From NCBI RefSeq assembly GCF_044647545.1, contig NZ_CP172818.1: a DNA stretch of 64,000 nucleotides; one strand, written 5' to 3'. The position numbers were made by a program, and so were the translations under genes. The notes below the pieces were generated by a model that saw nothing but the letters and a program-made list of their open reading frames with translations, ran no database searches and was not told the DNA's origin. The stretch's first letter is position 1. The number at the start of each line of letters is the position of its first letter. This document shows, piece after piece, positions 3,521 through 61,074 of this stretch. Source of the stretch: Escherichia coli (GTDB lineage Bacteria > Pseudomonadota > Gammaproteobacteria > Enterobacterales > Enterobacteriaceae).

Positions 3521-3610
3521 GTAGGCCTGATAAGACGCTATGAGCGTCGCATCAGGCATCCTGCTCAAATGCCGGATGCGGCGTAAACGCCTTATCCTGC
3601 CTACAATGCG
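3521..3610. repeat. REP/BIME palindromic units in yiiM-cpxA spacer
   Basis: gcctgataagacgc...gcgtcgcatcaggc and gccggatgcggcgtaaacgccttatcc, typical REP sequences. Confidence 0.8.
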
Positions 3611-29724: not shown

Positions 29725-32157
29725 ATGAGTGTGATTGCGCAGGCAGGGGCGAAAGGTCGTCAACTGCATAAATTTGGTGGCAGTAGTCTGGCTGATGTGA
29801 AGTGTTATTTGCGTGTCGCGGGCATTATGGCGGAGTACTCTCAGCCTGACGATATGATGGTGGTTTCCGCCGCCGGTAGCACCACTAACCAGTTGATTAA
29901 CTGGTTGAAACTAAGCCAGACCGATCGTCTCTCTGCGCATCAGGTTCAACAAACGCTGCGTCGTTATCAGTGCGATCTGATTAGCGGCCTGCTACCCGCT
30001 GAAGAAGCCGATAGCCTCATTAGCGCTTTTGTCAGCGATCTGGAACGCCTGGCGGCGCTGCTCGACAGCGGTATTAACGATGCGGTGTATGCGGAAGTGG
30101 TGGGCCACGGTGAAGTGTGGTCGGCGCGCCTGATGTCTGCGGTACTTAATCAACAAGGGCTGCCAGCGGCCTGGCTTGATGCCCGCGAGTTTTTACGCGC
30201 TGAACGCGCCGCGCAGCCGCAGGTTGATGAAGGGCTTTCTTACCCGTTGCTGCAACAGCTACTGGTACAACATCCGGGCAAACGTCTGGTGGTGACCGGG
30301 TTTATCAGCCGTAACAACGCCGGTGAAACGGTGCTGCTGGGGCGTAACGGTTCCGACTATTCCGCGACACAAATCGGTGCGCTGGCGGGTGTTTCTCGCG
30401 TAACCATCTGGAGCGACGTCGCCGGGGTATATAGCGCCGACCCGCGTAAAGTGAAAGATGCCTGCCTGCTGCCGTTGCTGCGTCTTGATGAAGCCAGTGA
30501 ACTGGCGCGTCTGGCGGCCCCCGTTCTTCACGCCCGTACTTTACAGCCAGTATCCGGTAGTGAAATCGACCTGCAACTGCGCTGTAGCTACACGCCGGAT
30601 CAAGGTTCCACGCGCATTGAACGCGTGCTGGCTTCCGGTACTGGCGCGCGTATTGTCACCAGCCACGATGATGTCTGTTTGATTGAGTTTCAGGTGCCTG
30701 CCAGTCAGGATTTCAAACTGGCGCATAAAGAGATCGACCAAATCCTGAAACGTGCTCAGGTGCGCCCACTGGCGGTTGGCGTACATAACGATCGCCAGTT
30801 GCTGCAATTTTGCTACACCTCGGAAGTGGCCGATAGTGCGCTGAAAATTCTCGACGAAGCGGGATTACCTGGCGAACTGCGCCTGCGTCAGGGGCTGGCG
30901 CTGGTGGCGATGGTTGGGGCGGGCGTAACCCGTAACCCGCTGCATTGCCACCGCTTCTGGCAGCAACTGAAAGGCCAGCCGGTCGAATTTACCTGGCAGT
31001 CCGATGACGGCATCAGCCTGGTGGCAGTACTGCGCACCGGGCCGACCGAAAGCCTGATTCAGGGTCTGCATCAGTCCGTCTTTCGCGCGGAAAAACGCAT
31101 CGGCCTGGTATTGTTCGGCAAGGGCAATATCGGTTCCCGCTGGCTGGAACTGTTCGCCCGTGAGCAGAGCACGCTTTCGGCGCGTACCGGCTTTGAATTT
31201 GTGCTGGCAGGCGTGGTGGACAGCCGCCGCAGCCTGTTGAGCTATGACGGGCTGGACGCCAGCCGCGCGTTAGCCTTCTTCAACGATGAAGCGGTCGAGC
31301 AGGATGAAGAGTCGCTGTTCCTGTGGATGCGCGCCCATCCGTATGATGATTTAGTGGTGCTGGACGTTACCGCCAGCCAGCAGCTTGCTGATCAGTATCT
31401 CGATTTTGCCAGCCACGGTTTCCACGTCATCAGCGCCAACAAACTGGCGGGAGCCAGCGACAGCAATAAATATCGCCAGATCCACGACGCCTTCGAAAAA
31501 ACCGGGCGTCACTGGCTGTACAATGCCACTGTCGGTGCGGGTTTGCCGATCAACCATACCGTGCGCGATCTGATCGACAGCGGCGATACCATTTTGTCGA
31601 TCAGTGGGATCTTCTCTGGCACGCTCTCCTGGCTGTTCCTGCAATTCGACGGTAGCGTGCCGTTTACCGAGCTGGTGGATCAGGCGTGGCAGCAGGGCTT
31701 AACCGAGCCTGATCCGCGTGATGACCTTTCCGGCAAAGACGTGATGCGCAAGCTGGTGATTCTGGCGCGTGAAGCGGGTTACAACATTGAACCGGACCAG
31801 GTGCGTGTTGAATCACTGGTGCCAACCCATTGCGAAGGTGGAAGCATCGACCATTTCTTTGAAAATGGCGATGAACTTAATGAGCAGATGGTACAACGGT
31901 TGGAAGCGGCCCGTGAAATGGGGCTGGTGTTGCGCTACGTGGCGCGTTTCGATGCCAACGGCAAAGCGCGAGTAGGCGTGGAAGCGGTGCGAGAAGACCA
32001 TCCGCTGGCATCACTACTACCGTGCGATAACGTCTTTGCCATCGAAAGCCGCTGGTATCGCGACAACCCGCTGGTGATCCGCGGGCCAGGTGCAGGGCGC
32101 GATGTCACCGCCGGGGCGATTCAGTCGGATATTAACCGTCTGGCGCAGTTGTTGTAA
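29725..32157 (+). CDS. metL: bifunctional aspartokinase II / homoserine dehydrogenase II
   Basis: 810-aa ORF MSVIAQAGAKGRQLHKFGGSSLADVKCYLRVAGIMAEY...; 2-bp spacer after metB. Confidence 0.97.
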   Translation: MSVIAQAGAKGRQLHKFGGSSLADVKCYLRVAGIMAEYSQPDDMMVVSAAGSTTNQLINWLKLSQTDRLSAHQVQQTLRRYQCDLISGLLPAEEADSLISAFVSDLERLAALLDSGINDAVYAEVVGHGEVWSARLMSAVLNQQGLPAAWLDAREFLRAERAAQPQVDEGLSYPLLQQLLVQHPGKRLVVTGFISRNNAGETVLLGRNGSDYSATQIGALAGVSRVTIWSDVAGVYSADPRKVKDACLLPLLRLDEASELARLAAPVLHARTLQPVSGSEIDLQLRCSYTPDQGSTRIERVLASGTGARIVTSHDDVCLIEFQVPASQDFKLAHKEIDQILKRAQVRPLAVGVHNDRQLLQFCYTSEVADSALKILDEAGLPGELRLRQGLALVAMVGAGVTRNPLHCHRFWQQLKGQPVEFTWQSDDGISLVAVLRTGPTESLIQGLHQSVFRAEKRIGLVLFGKGNIGSRWLELFAREQSTLSARTGFEFVLAGVVDSRRSLLSYDGLDASRALAFFNDEAVEQDEESLFLWMRAHPYDDLVVLDVTASQQLADQYLDFASHGFHVISANKLAGASDSNKYRQIHDAFEKTGRHWLYNATVGAGLPINHTVRDLIDSGDTILSISGIFSGTLSWLFLQFDGSVPFTELVDQAWQQGLTEPDPRDDLSGKDVMRKLVILAREAGYNIEPDQVRVESLVPTHCEGGSIDHFFENGDELNEQMVQRLEAAREMGLVLRYVARFDANGKARVGVEAVREDHPLASLLPCDNVFAIESRWYRDNPLVIRGPGAGRDVTAGAIQSDINRLAQLL

Positions 32158-32178
32158 TTTCAGTACTCTAAAATGCCC

Positions 32179-32227
<49 letters not shown>

Positions 32228-32245
32228 GCATGTATTTGAACGGCG

Positions 32246-32274
32246 TTTAAAATGGTTTTAAATGAAACTATAAT
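32246..32274 (+). promoter_or_regulatory. promoter-like element TTTAAA-N17-TATAAT facing the T-depleted tract
   Basis: Perfect -10 hexamer TATAAT at 32269..32274 with TTTAAA 17 bp upstream; no evidence of use. Confidence 0.3.
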
Positions 32275-32377
32275 GCGGTAACGATAGGTATTGAAACGCG
32301 TGATGAAATTAAATGCTACAACGTTATACGACGAACTCAAAGGCAAGGTGATTTGACTTCCTGATCACGAAGTGTTC

Positions 32378-32925
32378 CGGCCCGGCAGCCAAAAGGGGGG
32401 AAAAAGCGGCGCGGAAAAAAAAAAAGCGGGAGGGGAAAGGGGGGATAACCGGGGAGCAAAGGCGGCGAAAGCGAAAAACAAAACGCAAACCCACAAACGG
32501 AGGGGGGCGAAAGGAGAACAAAAAGAAAAGGCGAAAGAAAAAAACGCAAAACCAACGCGACGAGGAAGGCCCAACCGGCAAAAAAAAAAGCAACGACGGA
32601 AAAAAAAGTGAGAAGTGGCAACAAACGGCGCGCAACGCGAAAAAACGTCAGGAACGCCCCAGGAAGGGGTGAGCGGGGCGGGGGGGAAAAACCACCACGC
32701 AACAGCGCGGGAGCCGGGGGGGAGAGGCGCCACACAAACGAAGAAGAAGGGAAAAAAAAAAGGAGGGGGGAGAAAGGAAAAGGGAAAAAAGAACGACACA
32801 ACGGGGGCGGGGAAACAAGAACCAAAGAGCGCCAAAACAGGAAGGACACAAGGAAAGCGCGTAAACAAGGGCGGATACAAACAAACGGAAACCACAGAGA
32901 ACAGACAAGGAGGAAAAAAAAACCA
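32378..32925 (+). repeat. T-depleted low-complexity tract (A/G/C only, about half A)
   Basis: Only 7 T in about 548 nt by direct count; many G3-G7 and A5-A10 runs; all six frames open because stop codons cannot occur. Confidence 0.9.
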
Positions 32926-33229
32926 ATAAAGTACGTGTTGAGTTGATTTTCATTTGTTTGTTACCCAGTTGATTTTGCATATCCAGTATTCGGCCTACGC
33001 GAGGGCGCAGGCCGAATCAGATGTCTTACAACAACAATCCGGTGCGACACGTTGTTTTTCGAAGAAGCCCAGGGTCCGTGTTCAGAATAACAGCAAAAAG
33101 GGGGAGGGGATGCGGCACAAAAAAAATCTTTTATCGCCTCTAATTAAGATGAAGTTTTTTCAACTTCCCTGATTTTTCCTCACCATCATTGGTCATTTTT
33201 CGGTTGACGCCCCTCGGCTTTTCCTTCAT

Positions 33230-33270
33230 CTTTACATCTGGACGTCTAAATGGATAGATGTTCACAACAC
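33230..33270 (+). promoter_or_regulatory. metF promoter with MetJ boxes
   Basis: acatctggacgtctaaatggatagatgttcac contains tandem met-box-like octamers including gGACGTCT; putative -35 ttgacg at 33205..33210. Confidence 0.65.
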
Positions 33271-33301
33271 AACATATAACTACAAGCGATTGATGAGGTA
33301 A

Positions 33302-34195
<894 letters not shown>

Positions 34196-34469
34196 ATAGT
34201 GTGGCTTTTGTGAAAATCACACAGTGATCACAAATTTTAAACAGAGCACAAAATGCTGCCTCGAAATGAGGGCGGGAAAATAAGGTTGTCAGCCTTGTTT
34301 TCTCCCTCATTACTTGACGGATATGAAGCTAAAACCCTTTTTTATAAAGCATTTGTCCGAATTCGGACATAATCAAAAAAGCTTAATTACGATCAATTTG
34401 ATCTACATCTCTTTAACCAACAATATGTAAGATCTCAACTATCGCATCCGTGGATTAATTCAATTATAA

Positions 34470-36704
<2,235 letters not shown>

Positions 36705-36712
36705 TCTGACCT

Positions 36713-36754
36713 TCTTCAGCGACTGCCTTTCAGGCAGTCGCTGAAGTTTCTTTA
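36713..36754 (+). terminator. rho-independent terminator of katG
   Basis: Long perfect hairpin cttcagcgactgcc-tttc-aggcagtcgctgaag followed by tttcttt. Confidence 0.85.
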
Positions 36755-36797
36755 CCGGCGTATAGTGTCCACAGGAAAACTACACACTGGATCTCTC

Positions 36798-37703
36798 ATG
36801 TCTGCCGCAGGAAAGAGCAACCCACTGGCAATCAGTGGCCTGGTTGTGCTCACACTTATCTGGAGTTATAGCTGGATTTTCATGAAGCAAGTCACCAGCT
36901 ACATCGGTGCCTTCGACTTTACCGCCTTACGCTGCATTTTCGGCGCTCTCGTTTTATTCATCGTCCTTTTATTACGTGGTCGCGGAATGCGCCCGACACC
37001 GTTTAAATACACCTTAGCCATTGCCCTGTTACAAACCTGCGGGATGGTCGGCCTGGCGCAGTGGGCGCTGGTCAGCGGAGGAGCGGGGAAGGTGGCAATC
37101 CTGAGCTATACCATGCCGTTCTGGGTGGTGATTTTCGCCGCGTTGTTTCTCGGTGAACGCCTGCGACGTGGGCAATATTTCGCGATTCTGATTGCCGCTT
37201 TCGGCTTATTTTTGGTGTTGCAGCCGTGGCAACTCGATTTCTCTTCGATGAAAAGCGCCATGCTGGCAATCCTCTCCGGTGTGAGTTGGGGGGCGAGCGC
37301 GATTGTTGCTAAACGTCTGTATGCCCGCCATCCGCGCGTGGATTTATTGTCGCTAACATCCTGGCAGATGCTGTATGCGGCGCTGGTGATGAGCGTGGTC
37401 GCTTTACTGGTGCCGCAACGTGAAATTGACTGGCAACCCACCGTGTTCTGGGCGCTGGCCTACAGTGCGATTCTGGCGACAGCGCTGGCGTGGAGCTTAT
37501 GGTTGTTTGTATTGAAAAACTTGCCTGCCAGTATTGCCAGCTTAAGCACACTGGCCGTTCCCGTTTGCGGCGTACTCTTTTCCTGGTGGCTGCTCGGTGA
37601 GAATCCGGGGGCCGTTGAAGGTAGCGGTATTGTGCTGATTGTGCTGGCACTGGCGCTGGTGAGCCGTAAGAAAAAAGAAGCTGTCAGTGTAAAAAACATC
37701 TGA
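36798..37703 (+). CDS. yijE: EamA/DMT-family inner-membrane transporter YijE (reported cystine exporter)
   Basis: ORF 36765..37703; start at ATG 36798 ([30 protein letters not shown]...) gives 301 aa. Confidence 0.9.
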
Positions 37704-37729
37704 ATTTTTTCTTCATGTGGGGCGATCGC

Positions 37730-38347
37730 TTATTTAACAAAATACCGATAGTGCCCCACCATCCGCCAGCTAAACAGCACGTCTTCTTCCTGCGCGCCTG
37801 CGCCAATGTTATGTATCACCAGCGGCGTACCGTCGCGGGCGAAGCCATCTGACACCACCCCAATATGTGCCAGCCCGTTATCTAATCGCCAGGAGACAAT
37901 ATCGCCCGATTGATAGTCACTGGGGTTCTTGCTGGTGGGGCGTGTTTTATCGTGGCGGGTAAACCAGGTTTCCAGATTAGGCACCCGACGGTGATCGATG
38001 TTGCTGTCCGGGCGCTTTAACTGCCATTTTTGCGGGTACGCAGCAAAATTCTTCGCCATATCTTCGTGCACCAGTTTCTGCAAATCGACCTTCTGGCTGC
38101 GCAATGCACGGATCACCACATCGGAACATACGCCGCGTTCTTGCGGGACATCACCGCCAGGATAGGTAAGCTGCACATACGCCGGATCGTAAAATAGCGT
38201 GCTGCCGATTTGCTGTCTGGCACCGTCTGCGATGGCAAGGTTGGTGTTGGCCTGGATCTGTACCACGGTTGGTGGAACGGCGGGAGATTTTAAGGAGTGG
38301 CTGGTAAATGCCGTTAGCAGGCTGACCAGCACCAGTGAAGCTTTCAT
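37730..38347 (-). CDS. yijF: DUF1287-family secreted protein YijF
   Basis: 205-aa ORF MKASLVLVSLLTAFTSHSLKSPAVPPTVVQIQ... with signal peptide. Confidence 0.9.
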   Translation of the reverse strand: MKASLVLVSLLTAFTSHSLKSPAVPPTVVQIQANTNLAIADGARQQIGSTLFYDPAYVQLTYPGGDVPQERGVCSDVVIRALRSQKVDLQKLVHEDMAKNFAAYPQKWQLKRPDSNIDHRRVPNLETWFTRHDKTRPTSKNPSDYQSGDIVSWRLDNGLAHIGVVSDGFARDGTPLVIHNIGAGAQEEDVLFSWRMVGHYRYFVK

Positions 38348-38490
38348 CTGGTTCGTCCGTGAAAATAAGAGTCACAGATTCGACCTTCCGGGCTAACGAT
38401 TGTTCTGTAGAGAAAATGTCCAGAAGCGGATAAAAAATTCCTGAACAACGTGGGAGTTTCAGACATAACTATAAAAATCTCAACACCCCT

Positions 38491-38565
38491 TTGGGAGAGA
38501 GTCAGGGTGAGGAGGAACAGGCCAGCTCCGGGGCGAATAATCACCCTCACCCCGACCCTCTCCCT
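38491..38565. repeat. imperfect inverted repeat in yijF-gldA spacer
   Basis: gggagagagtcagggtgagg at 38491..38510 pairs with ccctcaccccgaccctctccc at 38545..38565 across a ~34-nt loop; family not identified. Confidence 0.5.
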
Positions 38566-38657
38566 GAAAGGGCGAGGGGGAAAAACATGCCCGCAGTGAC
38601 GAGTGAGCCACTTTGCCTGATCTCAAACTCCCGGACAAGCCGGGAGTTTGGAGTAGG

Positions 38658-39761
38658 TTATTCCCATTCTTGCAGGAAACGCTGGCCATACTGGTCGGCT
38701 ACCAGCAGTGCGGCGTAAACCTGATCTGGCGTTGCACCGCCTGGCATGTTGTGAATGGTTTCACCTTCTGCACATGCCGCTTCTGCCACAATTCGCATTT
38801 TCGCCGGGACATCTTCTTTAATATCCAGTTGAGCGAGCGTTATTGGCAAACCTACCGCATGGCTAAGCGCAGCTACGGTTTCGATTTCCTCCACCGGCGC
38901 GTTTTCCAGAACCAGCTGCGTCAGCGTACCGAATGCCACTTTTTCACCATGATAATAGTGATGCGCGTCCGGGATAGCGGTCAGGCCGTTATGTACCGCG
39001 TGTGCCGCCGCCAGCCCGCCGCTTTCAAAACCAACACCGCTCAAATAGGTGTTCGCTTCAATCACGCGTTCCAGCGCCGGAGTCACTACATGCTGTTCGG
39101 CGGCAAGCATCGCTTTTTCGCCTTCTTCCAGCAGAGTGTTGTAGCACAGTTCTGCCAGTGCCAGCGCCGCCTGGGTGCACTTGCCGCCCGCCATGGTGGT
39201 CGCGCCGCTACGAGAGCAAGCACGCGCTTCAAACCAGGTTGCCAGCGCATCGCCGATACCCGCCGCTAACAGACGTGCAGGTGCGCCAGCGACGATTTTG
39301 GTGTCGACAATGACCATATTCGGGTTATTTGGCAACAGCAGATAGCGGTCAAACTCACCCTCATCGGTGTAGATAACAGACAATGCGCTGCATGGTGCAT
39401 CGGTAGAGGCGATAGTCGGTGCGATCGCTACCGGAACACCCATGAAATGTGCCAGTGCTTTGGCAGTATCGAGGGTTTTTCCGCCACCGATACCGAGAAT
39501 TGCGCCACACTGCGCAGTCTCCGCGATGCCACGCAGACGGTCGATCTCATTTTGCGAACATTCACCGCCAAACGGCGCAATTTCTACTACCAGTCCAGCA
39601 TCTTTAAAACTTTTCTCGACAGTGGATTGAGCAAAACCTAAAACAAATTTGTCACCCACCACTAACCAGCGTTCTGCCAGCGGCTTCAGGTATTCGCCCA
39701 GACGATTAATCACATCAGCGCCCTGGATGTATTTACCCGGTGATTGAATAATGCGGTCCAT
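38658..39761 (-). CDS. gldA: glycerol dehydrogenase
   Basis: ORF 38658..39800; start at ATG 39761 ([32 protein letters not shown]...) gives 367 aa. Confidence 0.96.
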
Positions 39762-39771
39762 AATTGCTCCT

Positions 39772-40434
39772 TTAGAGATGAGTAGTGCCAAATGCGGCAT
39801 TCCAGTCGTTTTCGAACTTCTCTATAGCTGACTCTACCGCAGGGGTGTTGAGCATTTGTTGCGCTACATCTAAGGGCAGGGTGATGGATTCACATCCTGC
39901 CAGTAAACAGTCCAGCGCCTGACGCGGCGTTTTAAAGCTGGCTGCCAGCACCATGCTTTCTGGCGCGTGCATTTCCAACAGCGCTTGCAGCTCCTGAACC
40001 GTACGAATGCCGTCCCCGCCCTGGGCGTCGACGCGGTTAACATACGGAGCAACATATTTTGCCCCTGCCAGCGCGGCTAATAACCCTTGTGCGGCGCTAT
40101 ATACAGCGGTGCCAAGTGTAGTAATACCCTCTTTTTTCAGCATTTTAATGGCGGCAAGACCTTCGGAAGTTACCGGGATTTTCACCACAATGCCCGGAAT
40201 GGCGTCGCGCAGGCGCTTCGCTTCTTCCACCATACCCTGCGCGTCACGACTCATGGTCTGAGCAAACAAAATACCCTCATCACCAATCGCTTTTTGCAAA
40301 CGCGGCAGCACTTCCCAGATGGACTCCTTGCTGGCCGCGATAATGCTCGGGTTAGTTGTCACCCCGGCAATCGGGAATATGCGTGCCAGACGTTCGACTT
40401 CTGCGACGTTAGCGGTGTCCAGATACAGTTCCAT
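39772..40434 (-). CDS. fsaB: fructose-6-phosphate aldolase 2
   Basis: 220-aa [45 protein letters not shown]... Confidence 0.95.
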
Positions 40435-40445
40435 GATGTTTCCTT

Positions 40446-42947
40446 TTACAGTTCCAGTTCATGTTGCAGCAGGCTGGCGATAGCGTCGGCAGAGGCGGCG
40501 TTAACCAGCGCGTTACGGAATTCTTCGTGCATGATGCGACGAGCGAGGCGCGAGAAAATGCGCATGTGCTGATCGCCCGCAGCGTGTTTGTTCAGGGTTA
40601 ACATAATGATGAATTGCGCTTCATCATCGCCCCAGCGCACCGGCGCTGCCAGACGCGCCACGCTGATGGTGGATTGCTCAATGTGTTCTGATTTGCTGTG
40701 GGGAATGGCAAAACTAAAGCCCAGACCGGTAGAGAAAACGGCCTCGCGCGCCCACAAGTCGGCTTCCAGTTTACGCGGATAGCGACAGCGGCCCGCCAGC
40801 AGCAGGTTATCGGTCATGCCTTTGAGCACTTCTTCTTTGCTGCGCCAGTCGCTTTCCAGTGTGATGCACTCGGCGGTGACCAGCGGGGCGTCCTGTTGGG
40901 TCATGCGGAATTGCGCCAGCAGGTGTTCCACTTCTAGCGAAGTACGGCAGGCCATTGCCTGGTTGAGCAACTGGCGGCACTCACGGCTATCAAGTTGCGC
41001 CATTCGCGCTTTCGCCGCCGGAATTGACGGTGCGCTCATGCTCAGCTCATCCAGCCCTAAACCGACCAGCAATGGCAGCACGGAACCTTTCGCTCCCAGT
41101 TCACCGCACAGACCAATCCATTTGCCCTGGCGATGCACCGCCTGCACGGCGTAATCGAGCGCCCGCAAGAATGCTGGATTCAGGCTGTTATAGTGACGAG
41201 TAACCTTAGCGTTATCGCGATCCACTGCTAGCAGATATTGCGTCAGGTCATTACTACCGATACTAAAGAAATCAATCTCTTCGCAGCATTGATCGATGAT
41301 GAACATCACCGACGGCACTTCCAGCATGATGCCGAGCTGGATCTTCTCATCAAACGGAATGTGTTCGTTACGCAGTTGCTGTTTGGCTTCCGCCAGTTTT
41401 TCTTTTACCCATAAGATCTCTTCCATTGAAGAGATCATCGGGATCATAATTTTCAGGCTGCCGTGAGCGGAGGCACGGAGAATCGACCGTAGTTGTGTGG
41501 TAAATAACGACGCGTACTCTTCATAAATACGCACGGCGCGATAACCGAGGAACGGGTTTGCCTCTGCGGGAATGTTCAGATAATCAACGGGTTTGTCACC
41601 GCCAATATCCATAGTGCGCACAATAATGCTGCGTCCGTTGGCGGACTCCAGCGCCTGACAAAAAATGTTGTACAGCTCGCTTTCGCCCGGTGCACTGGTG
41701 CGATCCATATAGAGCATTTCAGTGCGGAATAAACCAACGCCTTCCGCACCATTGCCGAATGCGGCCTGCGCTTCCACGGAGTGAGCGATGTTAGCAGCAA
41801 TTTCAATGCGGATACCGTCAGCAGTACGGGCTTGTTGGGTCAGCCAGACACGCTGTTGCTCACGCAGAGCGTCCTGTACGCGGGCTTCTTGCTGATAATA
41901 ACGGGCCACGGATTCCCCTGGCTCAACCACAATCGCCCCTGCGTTGCCGTCGATATAAATCGTTTGATGCTGCCACGGAGTGAGGGCATCAATATCCACA
42001 CCAACCAGCGTCGGAATGTTGAACGAACGGGCAAGGATCACCGTATGTGAGGTGGTGCCGCCGCTTTTGAGCAACAATCCTTTGAGGTGATTTTTATCCA
42101 GTTCGAGGAACTGGCTGGGGGTCAGTTCATCAGCCATACAAATGGCGGGCTGCGTCAGTTTGCCCGGTGCCGGGAAGCGTTGCTCACCGTAGATTTGCTG
42201 GAGTAACTGGAAGCAGACGTCGCGTACGTCCAGGGCACGTTCTTGCAGGTAGCTGCTGCTGGAACGGGCGAACTCTTCGCAGAAGTGGTGTGCACTGGCA
42301 ACAATCGCTTCGGCACAGCTTAATCCGGCGCTGACACCTGCCAGTAAATGTTCGCGCAGGGAAGTATCGCCAGCCAGGGATCGGTGCGCTTCCAGAATCG
42401 CGCTGGTAGCACCGTCGCTATCCAGCAGACGAAACTCTATGTTTTTCAGTACCAGCGTCAGACCGTTTTCCAGTGCGGATTGTTCGGCGTCAACGCCTTT
42501 GGCTGCGGGAAGATTACCCAGCGCATTGAGATCTAAAGAAGAGATCGGCGTCAGAATGCCGCCTGCGCTACCGCTGCACACGGTGCGGGCACGGATAATT
42601 TGCGGATTCAGATTGGTCAGTGAAACCGGCAGTGGTTCCAGTTCGTCAGATTTTACTTCCGCCAGCGGTGCGTCGCAGTGGGGGAATTCATCGCGCAGCC
42701 ATTGGCTTAAACGCTGGTGCGCTTCCTGTTCGTCGGCCCCGGAAATCAGTAACTGGCAGTTATCGCCCACCAGCGTATCGGTGCCAATCAGCGCAAGGGC
42801 GCTTTTGGCGTTGCCCTTGCGGTCAGTGCGCAGGTTATGCCACTCAATTTGTGATGAAAAAGTATTACACAGCGTTTCAACGTGGCTTGCCGGACGCGCA
42901 TGGACGCCGTTAGGTAGCTCACAAATAAATTCCACAATCAGGGCCAT
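40446..42947 (-). CDS. ptsA: multiphosphoryl transfer protein PtsA/FrwA (EI-like, HPr-like and EIIA-like domains)
   Basis: 833-aa [33 protein letters not shown]... carrying HPr-like N-terminus and PEP-utilizing enzyme region. Confidence 0.93.
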
Positions 42948-43255
42948 TGCCTTTCTCCCGGTACGGTTTTCTGTTTACAGGATAAGAGCGCACGGCAACG
43001 GCCTACCATGTGACAAATCTGCCAAAAGCTGGACAAATGTAATGTAACCGTCAATTTGCGACGCGTCTCACAAGACGCCGTTTTGCGGTGTACTTCCGGA
43101 TTATCGCAAGTTATGAGGCGGATCGCATTTTTGTACTGATATTACAAAAGTCCAGTAAATGGCCTTTTTATCCACTGTTTGCTCCGCCTGCGATTGCCTA
43201 TTGTTTCTTCCATCAAAAATATGGACATGGGCTTTCGCAAGCCCGGGAGCAGCTT

Positions 43256-44335
43256 ATGAATGAGTTGGTGCAGATCCTGAAAAATACTCGTCAGCATTTA
43301 ATGACGGGCGTTTCACACATGATTCCCTTCGTGGTATCGGGCGGTATTTTGCTGGCGGTTTCCGTCATGTTGTATGGCAAAGGCGCAGTGCCGGATGCCG
43401 TCGCCGATCCGAATCTGAAAAAACTGTTTGATATCGGCGTTGCAGGTTTGACGCTGATGGTGCCTTTCCTCGCCGCTTACATCGGTTATTCCATTGCAGA
43501 GCGTTCTGCGCTGGCTCCGTGCGCTATCGGTGCCTGGGTTGGTAACAGCTTTGGTGCGGGCTTCTTTGGTGCACTGATCGCCGGGATTATCGGCGGCATC
43601 GTGGTGCATTACCTGAAGAAAATTCCGGTGCATAAAGTTCTGCGCTCGGTGATGCCCATCTTCATCATTCCGATCGTCGGCACACTGATTACCGCAGGCA
43701 TCATGATGTGGGGTCTGGGCGAGCCTGTAGGGGCGTTGACCAACAGCCTGACTCAGTGGCTTCAGGGGATGCAGCAGGGCAGCATTGTTATGCTGGCGGT
43801 GATCATGGGTCTGATGCTGGCGTTCGATATGGGTGGTCCGGTTAACAAAGTGGCCTATGCCTTCATGCTGATTTGCGTTGCTCAGGGTGTATATACCGTG
43901 GTGGCCATTGCTGCCGTGGGTATTTGTATCCCGCCGCTGGGGATGGGGTTGGCGACGCTGATTGGTCGTAAAAATTTCTCCGCAGAAGAGCGCGAAACCG
44001 GCAAAGCGGCGCTGGTGATGGGGTGCGTTGGGGTTACTGAAGGGGCGATTCCTTTCGCCGCTGCCGATCCGTTACGTGTCATTCCTTCCATCATGGTCGG
44101 TTCTGTTTGTGGTGCGGTAACTGCGGCACTGGTCGGTGCACAGTGCTATGCAGGCTGGGGTGGTCTGATTGTGCTGCCGGTGGTTGAAGGCAAGCTGGGT
44201 TATATCGCAGCAGTGGCTGTCGGAGCAGTGGTGACGGCTGTTTGTGTGAACGTGCTGAAAAGTCTGGCGCGTAAAAATGGGTCTTCGACTGATGAAAAAG
44301 AAGACGACCTGGATTTGGATTTTGAAATTAATTAA
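43256..44335 (+). CDS. frwC: fructose-like PTS permease EIIC component
   Basis: ORF 43088..44335; start at ATG 43256 (MNELVQILKNTRQHLMTGVSHMIPFVVSGGILLAV...) gives 359 aa. Confidence 0.93.
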   Translation: MNELVQILKNTRQHLMTGVSHMIPFVVSGGILLAVSVMLYGKGAVPDAVADPNLKKLFDIGVAGLTLMVPFLAAYIGYSIAERSALAPCAIGAWVGNSFGAGFFGALIAGIIGGIVVHYLKKIPVHKVLRSVMPIFIIPIVGTLITAGIMMWGLGEPVGALTNSLTQWLQGMQQGSIVMLAVIMGLMLAFDMGGPVNKVAYAFMLICVAQGVYTVVAIAAVGICIPPLGMGLATLIGRKNFSAEERETGKAALVMGCVGVTEGAIPFAAADPLRVIPSIMVGSVCGAVTAALVGAQCYAGWGGLIVLPVVEGKLGYIAAVAVGAVVTAVCVNVLKSLARKNGSSTDEKEDDLDLDFEIN

Positions 44336-44349
44336 TTGAGGAACGAGCC

Positions 44350-44670
44350 ATGACGAAAATTATTGCAGTAACCGCGTGTCCATCTGGTGTTGCCCATACC
44401 TATATGGCGGCAGAGGCGCTGGAAAGTGCCGCGAAAGCGAAAGGCTGGGAAGTGAAAGTAGAAACCCAGGGCTCGATTGGTCTGGAAAATGAACTGACTG
44501 CGGAAGACGTGGCGAGCGCCGATATGGTGATTCTGACCAAAGATATCGGCATCAAGTTTGAAGAGCGTTTTGCTGGCAAGACCATCGTGCGCGTCAACAT
44601 CAGCGACGCGGTAAAACGCGCTGATGCCATTATGAGCAAAATTGAAGCTCACCTGGCACAAACCGCTTAA
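44350..44670 (+). CDS. frwB: fructose-like PTS EIIB component
   Basis: 106-aa ORF MTKIIAVTACPSGVAHTYMAAEALESAAKAKGWEVKVETQGS... Confidence 0.94.
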   Translation: MTKIIAVTACPSGVAHTYMAAEALESAAKAKGWEVKVETQGSIGLENELTAEDVASADMVILTKDIGIKFEERFAGKTIVRVNISDAVKRADAIMSKIEAHLAQTA

Positions 44671-44678
44671 GTTCTTAT

Positions 44679-44696
44679 CCCGCCCGTAAGGGCGGG
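44679..44696 (+). terminator. hairpin after frwB (possible attenuator/terminator, weak T-run)
   Basis: cccgccc-gtaa-gggcggg followed by ttcgctttccc. Confidence 0.35.
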
Positions 44697-44720
44697 TTCG
44701 CTTTCCCACAGGAGTTCCTC

Positions 44721-47018
44721 ATGACGAATCGTATCTCTCGCCTCAAAACTGCACTGTTTGCCAATACCCGTGAAATCTCGCTGGAGCGGGCGCTGCTTTA
44801 TACCGCCAGCCATCGGCAAACCGAAGGCGAACCGGTGATATTGCGCCGGGCGAAAGCAACAGCGTATATCCTTGAACATGTTGAAATTTCGATTCGTGAT
44901 GAAGAACTGATTGCCGGTAACCGCACCGTAAAACCACGCGCCGGGATTATGTCGCCGGAAATGGACCCTTACTGGCTGCTGAAAGAGCTGGATCAATTCC
45001 CGACGCGTCCGCAGGACCGCTTTGCTATCAGCGAAGAAGATAAACGTATCTACCGCGAAGAGTTGTTCCCGTACTGGGAAAAACGTTCGATGAAAGATTT
45101 CATTAACGGGCAGATGACGGATGAAGTAAAAGCCGCGACCAGCACGCAGATTTTCAGCATCAACCAGACGGATAAAGGCCAGGGGCACATTATTATTGAT
45201 TACCCGCGCCTGCTGAATCACGGGCTGGGTGAGCTGGTAGCGCAAATGCAGCAACATTGTCAGCAACAGCCGGAGAATCACTTTTATCAGGCCGCGTTGT
45301 TACTGCTGGAAGCCTCGCAGAAACACATTTTGCGTTACGCCGAACTGGCGGAAACGATGGCGGCAAACTGCACAGATGCCCAGCGTCGCGAAGAGCTGCT
45401 GACTATTGCGGAGATCTCCCGCCATAACGCGCAACATAAGCCGCAGACGTTCTGGCAGGCGTGCCAGTTATTCTGGTACATGAACATCATTCTGCAATAC
45501 GAATCCAACGCCAGTTCGCTGTCTTTAGGGCGCTTCGACCAGTATATGTTGCCGTTCTATCAGGCATCTTTAACCCTGGGCGAAGATCCGGCGTTCCTGA
45601 AAGAACTGCTCGAATCTTTATGGGTGAAATGCAACGACATCGTGCTGTTGCGCTCCACCAGCAGCGCGCGTTATTTCGCCGGTTTCCCGACCGGCTATAC
45701 CGCACTGCTCGGCGGTTTAACCGAGAATGGACGTAGCGCGGTGAACGTGCTTTCGTTCCTCTGCCTCGATGCTTATCAAAGCGTGCAATTACCGCAACCG
45801 AACCTCGGCGTGCGCACTAACGCCTTGATCGACACGCCGTTCCTGATGAAAACCGCAGAAACCATTCGCCTCGGCACCGGTATTCCGCAAATCTTTAACG
45901 ATGAAGTGGTAGTGCCAGCGTTCCTCAACCGTGGCGTTTCGCTGGAAGATGCGCGCGACTATTCCGTAGTGGGCTGTGTGGAATTATCTATTCCCGGCAG
46001 AACCTACGGTCTGCATGACATTGCGATGTTTAACTTGCTGAAAGTGATGGAAATCTGCCTGCATGAAAATGAAGGCAATGCTGCGCTGACTTATGAAGGT
46101 TTACTGGAGCAGATCCGCGCCAAGATCAGCCACTACATCACCCTGATGGTTGAGGGCAGCAATATTTGTGATATCGGCCATCGCGACTGGGCACCTGTAC
46201 CGCTACTCTCGTCTTTTATCAGCGATTGTCTGGAAAAAGGCCGCGATATTACCGATGGCGGTGCGCGTTATAACTTCTCCGGCGTACAGGGGATCGGTAT
46301 CGCCAACCTGAGCGATTCTCTCCATGCGTTGAAAGGTATGGTTTTTGAGCAACAGCGTTTAAGTTTTGACGAATTGCTGTCGGTATTAAAAGCCAACTTC
46401 GCAACGCCAGAAGGCGAAAAAGTCCGTGCTCGCTTAATTAACCGCTTCGAGAAATACGGTAACGATATCGACGAGGTGGATAACATCAGCGCCGAACTGT
46501 TGCGCCACTACTGCAAAGAAGTGGAAAAATACCAGAACCCGCGCGGCGGTTACTTCACGCCGGGATCGTATACCGTTTCTGCTCACGTCCCGTTGGGATC
46601 GGTGGTTGGCGCGACGCCAGACGGTCGTTTTGCCGGAGAACAGCTGGCAGACGGCGGCTTGTCACCCATGCTGGGCCAGGACGCACAAGGGCCAACGGCG
46701 GTACTGAAGTCAGTCAGTAAGCTCGATAATACGCTGCTGTCTAACGGTACGTTGCTGAACGTGAAATTCACTCCGGCGACCCTGGAAGGTGAAGCGGGAT
46801 TACGCAAACTGGCCGACTTCTTACGGGCGTTTACCCAGCTTAAGTTGCAGCATATTCAGTTTAACGTGGTGAACGCCGACACGTTGCGGGAAGCGCAACA
46901 GCGCCCACAAGATTATGCCGGGCTGGTGGTGCGCGTTGCCGGATACAGCGCCTTCTTTGTCGAATTGTCGAAGGAGATCCAGGATGACATCATCCGCCGG
47001 ACAGCGCATCAGCTGTAA
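44721..47018 (+). CDS. pflD: glycyl-radical enzyme (pyruvate formate-lyase paralogue) PflD
   Basis: 765-aa ORF MTNRISRLKTALFANTREISLERALLYTASHRQTEGEPVI...; C-terminal glycyl-radical motif region RVAGYSAFF. Confidence 0.95.
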   Translation: MTNRISRLKTALFANTREISLERALLYTASHRQTEGEPVILRRAKATAYILEHVEISIRDEELIAGNRTVKPRAGIMSPEMDPYWLLKELDQFPTRPQDRFAISEEDKRIYREELFPYWEKRSMKDFINGQMTDEVKAATSTQIFSINQTDKGQGHIIIDYPRLLNHGLGELVAQMQQHCQQQPENHFYQAALLLLEASQKHILRYAELAETMAANCTDAQRREELLTIAEISRHNAQHKPQTFWQACQLFWYMNIILQYESNASSLSLGRFDQYMLPFYQASLTLGEDPAFLKELLESLWVKCNDIVLLRSTSSARYFAGFPTGYTALLGGLTENGRSAVNVLSFLCLDAYQSVQLPQPNLGVRTNALIDTPFLMKTAETIRLGTGIPQIFNDEVVVPAFLNRGVSLEDARDYSVVGCVELSIPGRTYGLHDIAMFNLLKVMEICLHENEGNAALTYEGLLEQIRAKISHYITLMVEGSNICDIGHRDWAPVPLLSSFISDCLEKGRDITDGGARYNFSGVQGIGIANLSDSLHALKGMVFEQQRLSFDELLSVLKANFATPEGEKVRARLINRFEKYGNDIDEVDNISAELLRHYCKEVEKYQNPRGGYFTPGSYTVSAHVPLGSVVGATPDGRFAGEQLADGGLSPMLGQDAQGPTAVLKSVSKLDNTLLSNGTLLNVKFTPATLEGEAGLRKLADFLRAFTQLKLQHIQFNVVNADTLREAQQRPQDYAGLVVRVAGYSAFFVELSKEIQDDIIRRTAHQL

Positions 47019-60904: not shown

Positions 60905-60965
60905 GGGGATTGCAGATTAACAAAATGGCTTCCATCGCCGGGATTCAAAACTTTGGCAAAAAAAA

Positions 60966-61074
60966 GCGGATCCTGGAGATCCGCAAAAGTTCACGTTGGC
61001 TTTAGTTATTCGAGTTGAGAAACTCTCGAAACGGGCAGTGACTTCAAGGGTTAAAAGAGGTGCCGCTCCGTTTC
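60966..61074 (-). ncRNA. oxyS: OxyS oxidative-stress small RNA
   Basis: Reverse complement reads GAAACGGAGCGGCACCTCTTTTAACCCTTGAAGTCACTGCCCGTTTCGAGAGTTTCTCAACTCGAATAACTAAAGCCAACGTGAACTTTTGCGGATCTCCAGGATCCGC with terminator hairpin and U-run, matching OxyS as recalled. Confidence 0.9.

Follow-up and report, generated by a model that had tools for sequence, protein, structure and literature searches.

BoxC, which we take to have been first described at fabI (envM), was originally annotated in Escherichia coli K-12 as 33 copies of 51–59 bp, and the name PIT element reportedly came from the Maher laboratory in 2000. In a later description as a triplex motif, TMECO, Holder et al. (2015) equated the motif with what had been known first as BoxC and later as PIT, its pattern being CCCTCNCCCN3-6GGGNGAGGGN3GGGNGAGGG, that is, the blocks CCCTCNCCC-N3-6-GGGNGAGGG-N3-GGGNGAGGG (PMC4666352). 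Their analysis found 23 TMECO copies in K-12, every one of them intergenic, and five cases in which a type A unit (loop TTA) lies near a type B unit (loop CCG) on the opposite strand (PMC4666352). TMECO loci were described as unusually variable, the palindromic pairs often carrying small deletions with which a hairpin is still possible, and the argument for TMECO instability is correlative (PMC4666352). The K-12 sites of HPG1/HPG2 listed by Kaplan et al. (2016) include pairs at hrpB-mrcB, ygfF-gcvP and alx-sstT, as well as one unpaired copy next to fabI (PMC5100583). The equivalence of BoxC with TMECO and HPG rests on the statement of Holder et al. and on the copy beside fabI; the current K-12 record (NC_000913.3) carries no repeat features at the loci that we retrieved. 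The repeat described below is of this already known family, BoxC, also named PIT element, TMECO triplex motif and HPG1/HPG2 G-quadruplex motif.

The yijF-gldA spacer and its repeat

The window, the 64-kb stretch of E. coli DNA analyzed here, contains a 310-bp spacer (38348–38657) that runs from the start of yijF, whose coding sequence occupies 37730–38347 on the minus strand, to the stop codon of gldA (38658). Both gene names, proposed for the neighbors of the spacer in an earlier note on this DNA, agree with annotated E. coli records. The 20-bp imperfect inverted repeat which that note described is present (20-nt arms at 38493–38512 and 38545–38564, 18 of 20 positions complementary), with 32 nt between the arms where about 34 nt had been given. 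Two copies of GGGAGTTT are likewise found, at 38452–38459 and 38642–38649, each one base away from its reported position (38453–38460 and 38641–38648), and the hairpin CTCCCGG-ACAAG-CCGGGAG exists at 38628–38646 (reported as 38629–38647), growing to a perfect 11-bp stem (38624–38634 with 38640–38650) around a 5-nt loop. As a direct repeat, GGGAGTTT alone is within chance, about 0.7 repeated 8-mers being expected per 310 bp by our estimate. It sits within larger repeats, namely an inverted repeat matching at 11 of 12 positions (38452–38463 with 38621–38632) and a direct repeat in which the full hairpin sequence, GGGAGTTT included, matches at 19 of 25 positions (38435–38459 and 38625–38649). The features of the locus are as follows.

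38435–38459, plus strand: degenerate second copy of the hairpin (19/25 relative to 38625–38649), on the yijF side of the slot
38452–38463, plus strand: GGGAGTTTCAGA, host-side left border of the slot, 11/12 complementary to 38621–38632
38465–38621, no strand assigned: degraded BoxC composite (palindromic pair with conserved flanks), orthologous to a ~175-nt insert in 630 genomes
38493–38512, plus strand: degenerate type A unit, the left arm of the inverted repeat in the earlier note, with two core mismatches; the full pattern fails here
38513–38543, no strand assigned: central spacer of the pair and loop of the long hairpin, conserved across E. coli composites
38544–38578, minus strand: intact BoxC/TMECO unit, type-B-like, an exact match to the published pattern
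38579–38619, no strand assigned: right flank of the composite, delimited by alignment with K-12 copies and by the fold of the intact allele
38621–38632, plus strand: TCTCAAACTCCC, host-side right border of the slot, overlapping the 5′ arm of the hairpin
38624–38650, minus strand: perfect hairpin with an 11-bp stem and a 5-nt loop, 8 nt past the gldA stop

The TMECO pattern has one exact match in the 64-kb window, the minus-strand unit at 38544–38578 (0 matches expected, 0 in 100 shuffles), which reads CCCTCGCCC-TTTCA-GGGAGAGGG-TCG-GGGTGAGGG and whose G-rich strand is the sense strand of gldA and yijF. Its plus-strand partner reads GGGAGAGAG-TCA-GGGTGAGG, with the C-rich block missing; in intact orthologues the plus unit is CCCTCTCCCC-TTT-GGGGAGAGGG-TTA-GGGTGAGGG. 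When the BoxC core is searched with up to three mismatches, just the two arms match in 64 kb, and 100 shuffles give no match, which puts the main repeat far outside chance expectation. Since one arm of the inverted repeat matches the pattern on the minus strand and the other is a degenerate plus-strand arm, the repeat recognized earlier is the interior of a BoxC palindromic pair; the 20-bp arms are real, but they belong to a composite of ~155 nt whose extent had been missed. The palindromic configuration is that of the published pairs: in intact orthologues the plus strand carries an A unit (TTA) and the minus strand, after 29 nt, a B-like one (TCG). The element lies wholly inside the 310-bp spacer and is intergenic, like the rest of the family.

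The yijF-gldA repeat is a BoxC palindromic pair in partly degraded form, and we consider it probable that it is neutral or selfish, a structural repeat that serves no dedicated function locally. Two units of ~35 nt, each of three 9-nt blocks (CCCTCNCCC, GGGAGAGGG and GGGTGAGGG), occupy opposite strands ~30 nt apart, the pair being embedded in a composite of ~155 nt here and ~175 nt when intact, which as single-stranded DNA or RNA folds up into a single long hairpin. The window copy shares with BoxC/TMECO/HPG the three-block sequence, the intergenic position, the multiple copies and the inverted A/B pair, and its pair architecture matches that at hrpB-mrcB, fepB-entC, gcvP-ygfF and alx-sstT in K-12; like those of the family, it is prone to mutation and partial deletion between strains. 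It differs in several details: the loop of the type B unit is TCG rather than the published CCG; the type A unit lacks the C block and has GAG for GGG and TCA for TTA; the conserved unit is ~155 nt (~175 nt intact), compared with the 35–56 nt usually quoted; and in K-12 itself gldA-yijF is not a BoxC site, REP being found there instead.

Alignment with K-12 supports the larger composite. The intact gldA-yijF composite aligns over ~180 nt with the copies at gcvP-ygfF, alx-sstT and fepB-entC, and hrpB-mrcB carries a shorter version, K-12 copies having been verified at five loci. The aligned copies share the central spacer and the flanks on both sides, and the K-12 pairs have the same type A/type B layout as the intact gldA-yijF orthologues. 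Among E. coli composites the central spacer is kept as GGAACAGGCCAGC.CCGG.GCGAATATTTA, and it varies freely in other taxa; the right flank contains GAGCCACTTT (38605–38614), in intact copies the pairing partner of AAAGTGCTC in the left flank. Far from being a single, unconserved copy, the sequence has many relatives: a 191-nt query containing the intact type A unit finds related places in 5,424 of 5,426 E. coli genomes, with a median of 16 per genome and a maximum of 30, and a 159-nt composite query finds a median of 4. The two medians fit the published 23–33 short copies together with a handful of long ones.

The earlier note had called the repeat a small extragenic repetitive element other than REP, and had named REP, ERIC/IRU, boxC and RSA as families for comparison; both the general description and the exclusion of REP are borne out, and BoxC is the one of the four that fits exactly. 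The REP consensus, which we take to be GCCKGATGCGRCG...CGYCTTATCMGGCCTAC, has its sole match in the window at 3521–3557, and none in the spacer. REP/BIME elements resemble BoxC in being intergenic and palindromic and in lying just after a stop codon or terminator, and they occupy the same slot in alternative alleles; the BoxC pair also recalls the paired inverted arrangement of REP doublets (REPINs). There is, however, no sequence similarity between them, BoxC consisting of G/C homopurine-homopyrimidine blocks, and we know of no RAYT-type transposase associated with BoxC. What we presume to be the ERIC central core, AAGTAAGTGACTGGGGTGAGCG, has no match in the 64-kb window with up to three mismatches; ERIC/IRU and RSA are, like this element, intergenic repeats (127–152 bp) with few copies per genome. 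RSA, a 150/151-bp unit with six copies in K-12 (PMC5172473), is compatible with the composite in length and low copy number, the two traits compared.

Occupants of the slot and state of this copy

The composite fills a variable slot of the yijF-gldA spacer. A REP pair occupies this slot in 4,592 of 5,426 complete E. coli genomes (85%), and an intact BoxC pair, giving a 330-bp spacer, in 630 (12%). BL21 and K-12 have an unrelated insert of two REPs between GGGAGTTTCAGA and TC(TC)AAACTCCC, with a spacer of 274 bp; in E2348/69 the loop of a REP at this slot contains IS1397, an insertion sequence that targets REP loops, and at least one strain has a bigger REP cluster. A single slot beside a terminator hairpin can thus hold a REP pair, REP with IS1397, or a BoxC pair, according to lineage. 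This is a hot slot, lying directly downstream of the gldA stop and its hairpin and, on the other side, ~118 nt ahead of the start codon of yijF.

REP and BoxC alleles have the same flanks around the slot, with no difference in either GGGAGTTT copy, in the hairpin or in GGGAGTTTCAGA; the right-hand GGGAGTTT copy is the 3′ arm of the 38624–38650 hairpin. Because they are common to both alleles, the GGGAGTTT copies and the hairpin are host sequence and not BoxC ends, so that the earlier reading of the GGGAGTTT pair as the boundary of the element does not hold: it is kept in the 85% of genomes with a REP pair. For the same reason, namely that both copies also surround the REP allele, GGGAGTTT is ruled out as a target-site duplication. 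A possible homology of the left flank CAACGTGGGAGTTTCAGAC to the alx-sstT locus was also considered; 69 of 1,000 shuffles score equally, and the left flank was therefore dropped as a part of the element.

A comparable polymorphism is seen after gcvP, where in K-12 the BoxC composite and ygfF directly follow the gcvP terminator, and where ~44% of genomes lack both the composite and ygfF and have a REP-containing spacer instead. The variability of the gcvP and gldA loci agrees with the report of Holder et al. that TMECO loci are unusually variable. An empty site was sought at gldA-yijF and at gcvP and none was found, the alternatives being a REP pair in the one case and the absence of ygfF with a REP-containing spacer in the other; because these alleles carry other sequence, they offer no clean filled/empty comparison.

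The window copy differs from the intact allele in a narrow interval. Compared with two genomes that encode an identical YijF protein, it has one SNP in 3.4 kb of flank (3.6 kb compared) and 26 differences, all inside 38465–38621. The changes are one-sided: every G of the 31-nt stretch GGGTGATAACGTATAAAAAGTGCTCGAACAG is missing, as is the C-rich block CCCCCTCT, the type A unit and loop have a few substitutions, and the type B unit and the next 40 nt are unchanged. The minus-strand unit is intact, the plus-strand unit is without its C block and has point changes, and the imperfection in the left arm of the inverted repeat is private to the window sequence. In single-stranded DNA folds, the intact gldA-yijF allele reaches −46.5 kcal/mol (z −4.8) as a single long hairpin closed by the host-side GGGAGTTT/AAACTCCC pairing, and the K-12 gcvP copy reaches −51.9 kcal/mol (z −6.4), compared with −31.0 kcal/mol (z −2.4) for the window copy.

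These clustered private changes are either local decay of a mutated palindromic TMECO or a base-calling or compression artefact at a strong hairpin. That the left half reflects an error of sequencing or base calling, and that the locus really has the canonical intact 330-bp allele, is possible, though we lean against it. It would account for the confinement of the changes next to a nearly invariant flank, for the loss of the GGGTGATAACGTATAAAAAGTGCTCGAACAG Gs and of CCCCCTCT, the latter within a tight local hairpin, and for a right half that is the same as in the canonical allele. Four other BoxC-allele genomes, moreover, are only 1–3 SNPs apart; the complete genomes nearest to the window, at 99.6%, are ST648-like strains; the 310-bp spacer of the window is absent from all 5,426 complete E. 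coli genomes, where the best match is 92% and the variant junction does not occur; and that junction has no match in metagenome contigs, compared with 11 for the canonical junction. On the other side, the long open reading frames elsewhere in the window are intact and nothing there points to poor quality, and mutated or partly deleted TMECO pairs are commonly real (Holder et al., 2015; PMC4666352); this copy resembles the palindromic pairs with small deletions reported there. The question concerns the state of this copy and not its family identity. The private changes are either a case of structure-induced decay or a warning that strong hairpins yield errors that are then read as degenerate repeats.

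Relatives in other phyla and mobility

A scan of one genome per species with the pair core, GGGTTAGGGTGAGGG-N15-45-CCCTCACCCCNNCCCTC, recovered at least 120 stretches. Among the matches listed are Enterobacter, Leclercia, Superficieibacter, Serratia, Pseudomonas, Polaromonas, Variovorax, Azospirillum and Methylomonas, many alphaproteobacterial MAGs, Planctomycetota, including the complete genome of Limnoglobus roseus, and MAGs of Lentisphaerae, Anaerolineae and Syntrophobacterales.

In these sequences the three 9-nt blocks keep every letter, in Enterobacteriaceae as in Alpha- and Betaproteobacteria, Planctomycetota, Lentisphaerae and Anaerolineae. Blocks outside the search pattern are also kept among the matches listed: of 118, 109 have GGGAGA on the 5′ side and 76 have both outer stems, and in the same set the loops and the central spacer vary across taxa. 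The lack of covariation implies that the sequence itself is constrained, and more than an RNA helix alone, and letter-for-letter identity of 9-nt blocks across distant phyla is hard to square with pure neutrality; it may point to recognition of the specific sequence or to a constraint on DNA structure. The cross-phylum matches lie in shorter open frames than random positions do (median 744 versus 1,299 nt), a crude test and, in G+C-rich genomes, a weak one.

Serratia oryzae has a MITE of 175–177 bp with the BoxC pair as its core and terminal inverted repeats of 19 bp (TAATGCTnnTCAGTTAAG); among its 11 scorable copies, 7 have target-site duplications of 11–13 bp, inside terminator-like hairpins. 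The E. coli composite is similar in length (~175 nt), in its BoxC-pair core, in its fold into a single long hairpin, which includes the outer AAAGTGCTC/GAGCCACTTT pairing, and in its place beside or inside terminator hairpins, which it directly adjoins at both gldA and gcvP; it is also polymorphic for presence and absence. These likenesses raise the possibility, on the whole an unlikely one, that the element is a fossil MITE, with the BoxC pair as its structural core, whose insertion took place beside or within the gldA terminator hairpin. Against such an origin, the window and other E. coli copies have imperfect internal pairing only, with neither clean terminal repeats nor a definable target-site duplication; the flanks here form an inverted and not a direct repeat and are common to the REP allele; the alternative alleles hold other sequence in place of an empty site; and the E. 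coli flanks have no visible homology to the Serratia element. Holder et al. likewise saw no link to a transposon, phage or plasmid (PMC4666352).

A broader reading, and one that we offer with still more reserve, is that BoxC pairs form the conserved core of a very widespread, sequence-specifically recognized MITE- or REPIN-like module that homes to terminator hairpins. Were this true, the gldA-yijF copy would be a fossil insertion, and the alternation of REP and BoxC would represent two elements competing for one hairpin target. In the reading that we favor for this locus, the element is a partly decayed BoxC pair, neutral or selfish and probably once mobile. As a finding for this window it is real but ordinary, and of little import; the cross-phylum block conservation together with the Serratia MITE suggests a route by which BoxC may have spread, ~30 years after the repeat was described.

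Candidate roles at gldA and yijF

The spacer is strongly structured: the minus-strand RNA of 38440–38657 folds to −99.9 kcal/mol (z = −5.3), and the minimum-energy fold includes the 38624–38650 hairpin, which is conserved in all alleles. From its position, this hairpin is plausible as a gldA terminator or 3′-end hairpin with a weak U-tail, and it is the likeliest candidate marker of the gldA 3′ end; its tail reads TTTGAGAT, and a consensus terminator scan makes no call there. The single terminator-like call in the spacer (38603–38590, minus strand) falls within the element, on a weak stem of 5 bp, and is within chance expectation, and a scan of the spacer for sigma-70-like promoters found none. 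Neither a promoter nor a terminator or sRNA role is supported for the element itself, which would have no dedicated host function at gldA-yijF; its chief consequence may be local sequence instability, through hairpin or triplex formation in replication or repair.

REP stabilizes upstream mRNA, and REP and BoxC swap in exactly one slot at this locus. The element lies <40 nt from the gldA stop on the transcribed strand, and the minus-strand fold is very stable. If gldA transcripts read through, the hairpin of the element could act as a REP-like barrier to 3′ exonucleases. Selection of the element as a 3′-end structure of gldA RNA, whether as terminator or as stabilizer against 3′-5′ exonucleases, doing the same job as REP, nonetheless seems improbable. 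Neither the short nor the long hairpin is followed by a U-tract, and the degraded copy is down by one third in folding energy, with no sign of compensation. The orientation of the element to its upstream gene is not the same at gcvP as at gldA and alx, which argues against a strand-specific RNA role. PIT/BoxC elements showed neither promoter nor terminator activity in the reporter tests cited in PMC4666352, and the same source describes a block to DNA polymerase in vitro only.

A DNA switch between duplex and hairpin/G-quadruplex or triplex, tuning yijF or gldA as was proposed for HPG1/HPG2, is less probable still. The intact G-rich unit does lie on the coding strand ~200 nt upstream of the yijF start, and in vitro TMECO oligonucleotides form a very stable triplex (PMC4666352) and HPG1/HPG2 oligonucleotides a G-quadruplex/hairpin (PMC5100583); triplex and G-quadruplex data come from these two sources, our computed folds being of Watson-Crick pairing only. 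DMS footprinting, however, gave no triplex in vivo (PMC4666352), K-12 copies show no pattern in their distance and orientation to genes (PMC4666352; PMC5100583), the spacer is without a sigma-70-like promoter, and the 12% of E. coli genomes with BoxC here stand against 85% with an unrelated REP pair.

The element is neither an sRNA nor a known cis-regulatory RNA: although it folds strongly on both strands, that it encodes a small regulatory RNA is barely credible, given that Rfam finds nothing in the spacer at the gathering threshold (best sub-threshold match 29.9 bits, threshold 78), the sub-threshold matches being generic long hairpins, that a promoter-like site and a U-tailed terminator are both absent, that its stems are invariant across taxa and not covarying, and that its orientation is not conserved from locus to locus. 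Permissive Rfam matches to eukaryotic miRNA-precursor and viral stem-loop models were rejected as reflecting a generic long hairpin. The name BoxC can now be attached to a structured repeat that had no annotation and that is no gene, riboswitch or sRNA, and the slot in which REP and BoxC replace each other is a compact natural system for testing the effects of repeats on mRNA 3′ ends and on local mutation.

Contents of the gldA-yijF slot and of the gcvP-bglA region

The 25-nt sequence of the hairpin that follows gldA occurs in the window as a direct repeat (38435-38459 and 38625-38649, 19/25 identical), and the two copies flank the variable gldA-yijF slot; both are common to the REP and BoxC alleles of the slot. 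In a derivative of E. coli O127:H6 E2348/69 (L007, a stretch of that genome, 1330-1400), the slot is occupied by a REP unit bearing IS1397 in its loop, where the junction reads GCCGGATACGGCGTGA joined to TGAACTGCACC..., and the gldA side is displaced. An extended REP cluster occupies the slot in E. coli 7_12_15B (L015, likewise a stretch of that genome, 420-600), in which the gldA-side sequence is different. This further allele, that of 7_12_15B, brings the number of states of the gldA-yijF slot to at least four.

At gcvP-bglA, the gcvP terminator of the K-12 lineage (L004 1461-2526) is directly followed by a BoxC composite and the ygfF gene. Approximately 44% of E. coli genomes have neither the BoxC composite nor ygfF at this position, and carry a 165-nt REP-containing spacer there (1412-1576 in the stretches L138 and L139).

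BoxC pairs across phyla and in a Serratia MITE

The exact BoxC pair architecture, i.e. two units of three 9-nt blocks on opposite strands, was found in many phyla among the matches listed in a contig scan (stretches L018-L137). The loops of these pairs are variable and the 9-nt blocks invariant among the matches listed.

BoxC pairs among the matches listed, and tandem arrays of the pair
Proteobacteria: Alpha-, Beta- and Gammaproteobacteria
Planctomycetota: among them Limnoglobus roseus (complete genome)
MAGs: Lentisphaerae, Anaerolineae and Syntrophobacterales
L054 3425-3835, Planctomycetota MAG: tandem array of four units, 117-nt period
L078 2089-2618, Pseudomonas turukhanskensis: tandem array of three units

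Contigs of Serratia oryzae J11-6 (L103-L119) carry a MITE of 175-177 bp that has 19-bp terminal inverted repeats (TAATGCTnnTCAGTTAAG ... CTTAACTGAnCnGCATTA) and the BoxC inverted pair as its core. Of the 11 scorable copies of this MITE, 7 show target-site duplications, 11-13 bp long, which are contained in terminator-like hairpins.

Nearest genomes and other elements of the window

The complete genomes closest to window positions 30000-47000 are ST648-like (e.g. FDAARGOS_497), with an identity of only 99.6%; they cover 95% of this region in two pieces. The two pieces span 19,035 bp in the ST648-like genomes versus 17,001 bp in the window, implying an indel of approximately 2 kb somewhere within 30000-47000. 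Elsewhere in the window, a canonical REP unit overlaps one of several Rfam matches.

REP unit and Rfam matches in the window
3521-3557, minus strand: canonical REP unit, overlapping the naRNA4 match
3524-3601, minus strand: naRNA4 (nucleoid-associated ncRNA 4, REP-derived), Rfam, 78.9 bits
8605-8646, - strand: ES036 sRNA, Rfam gathering-level match
22298-22355, - strand: ClpQY (hslVU) promoter element, Rfam gathering-level match
26967-27019, + strand: L31 ribosomal-protein leader, Rfam gathering-level match
60965-61074, minus strand: OxyS small RNA, Rfam, 139.5 bits
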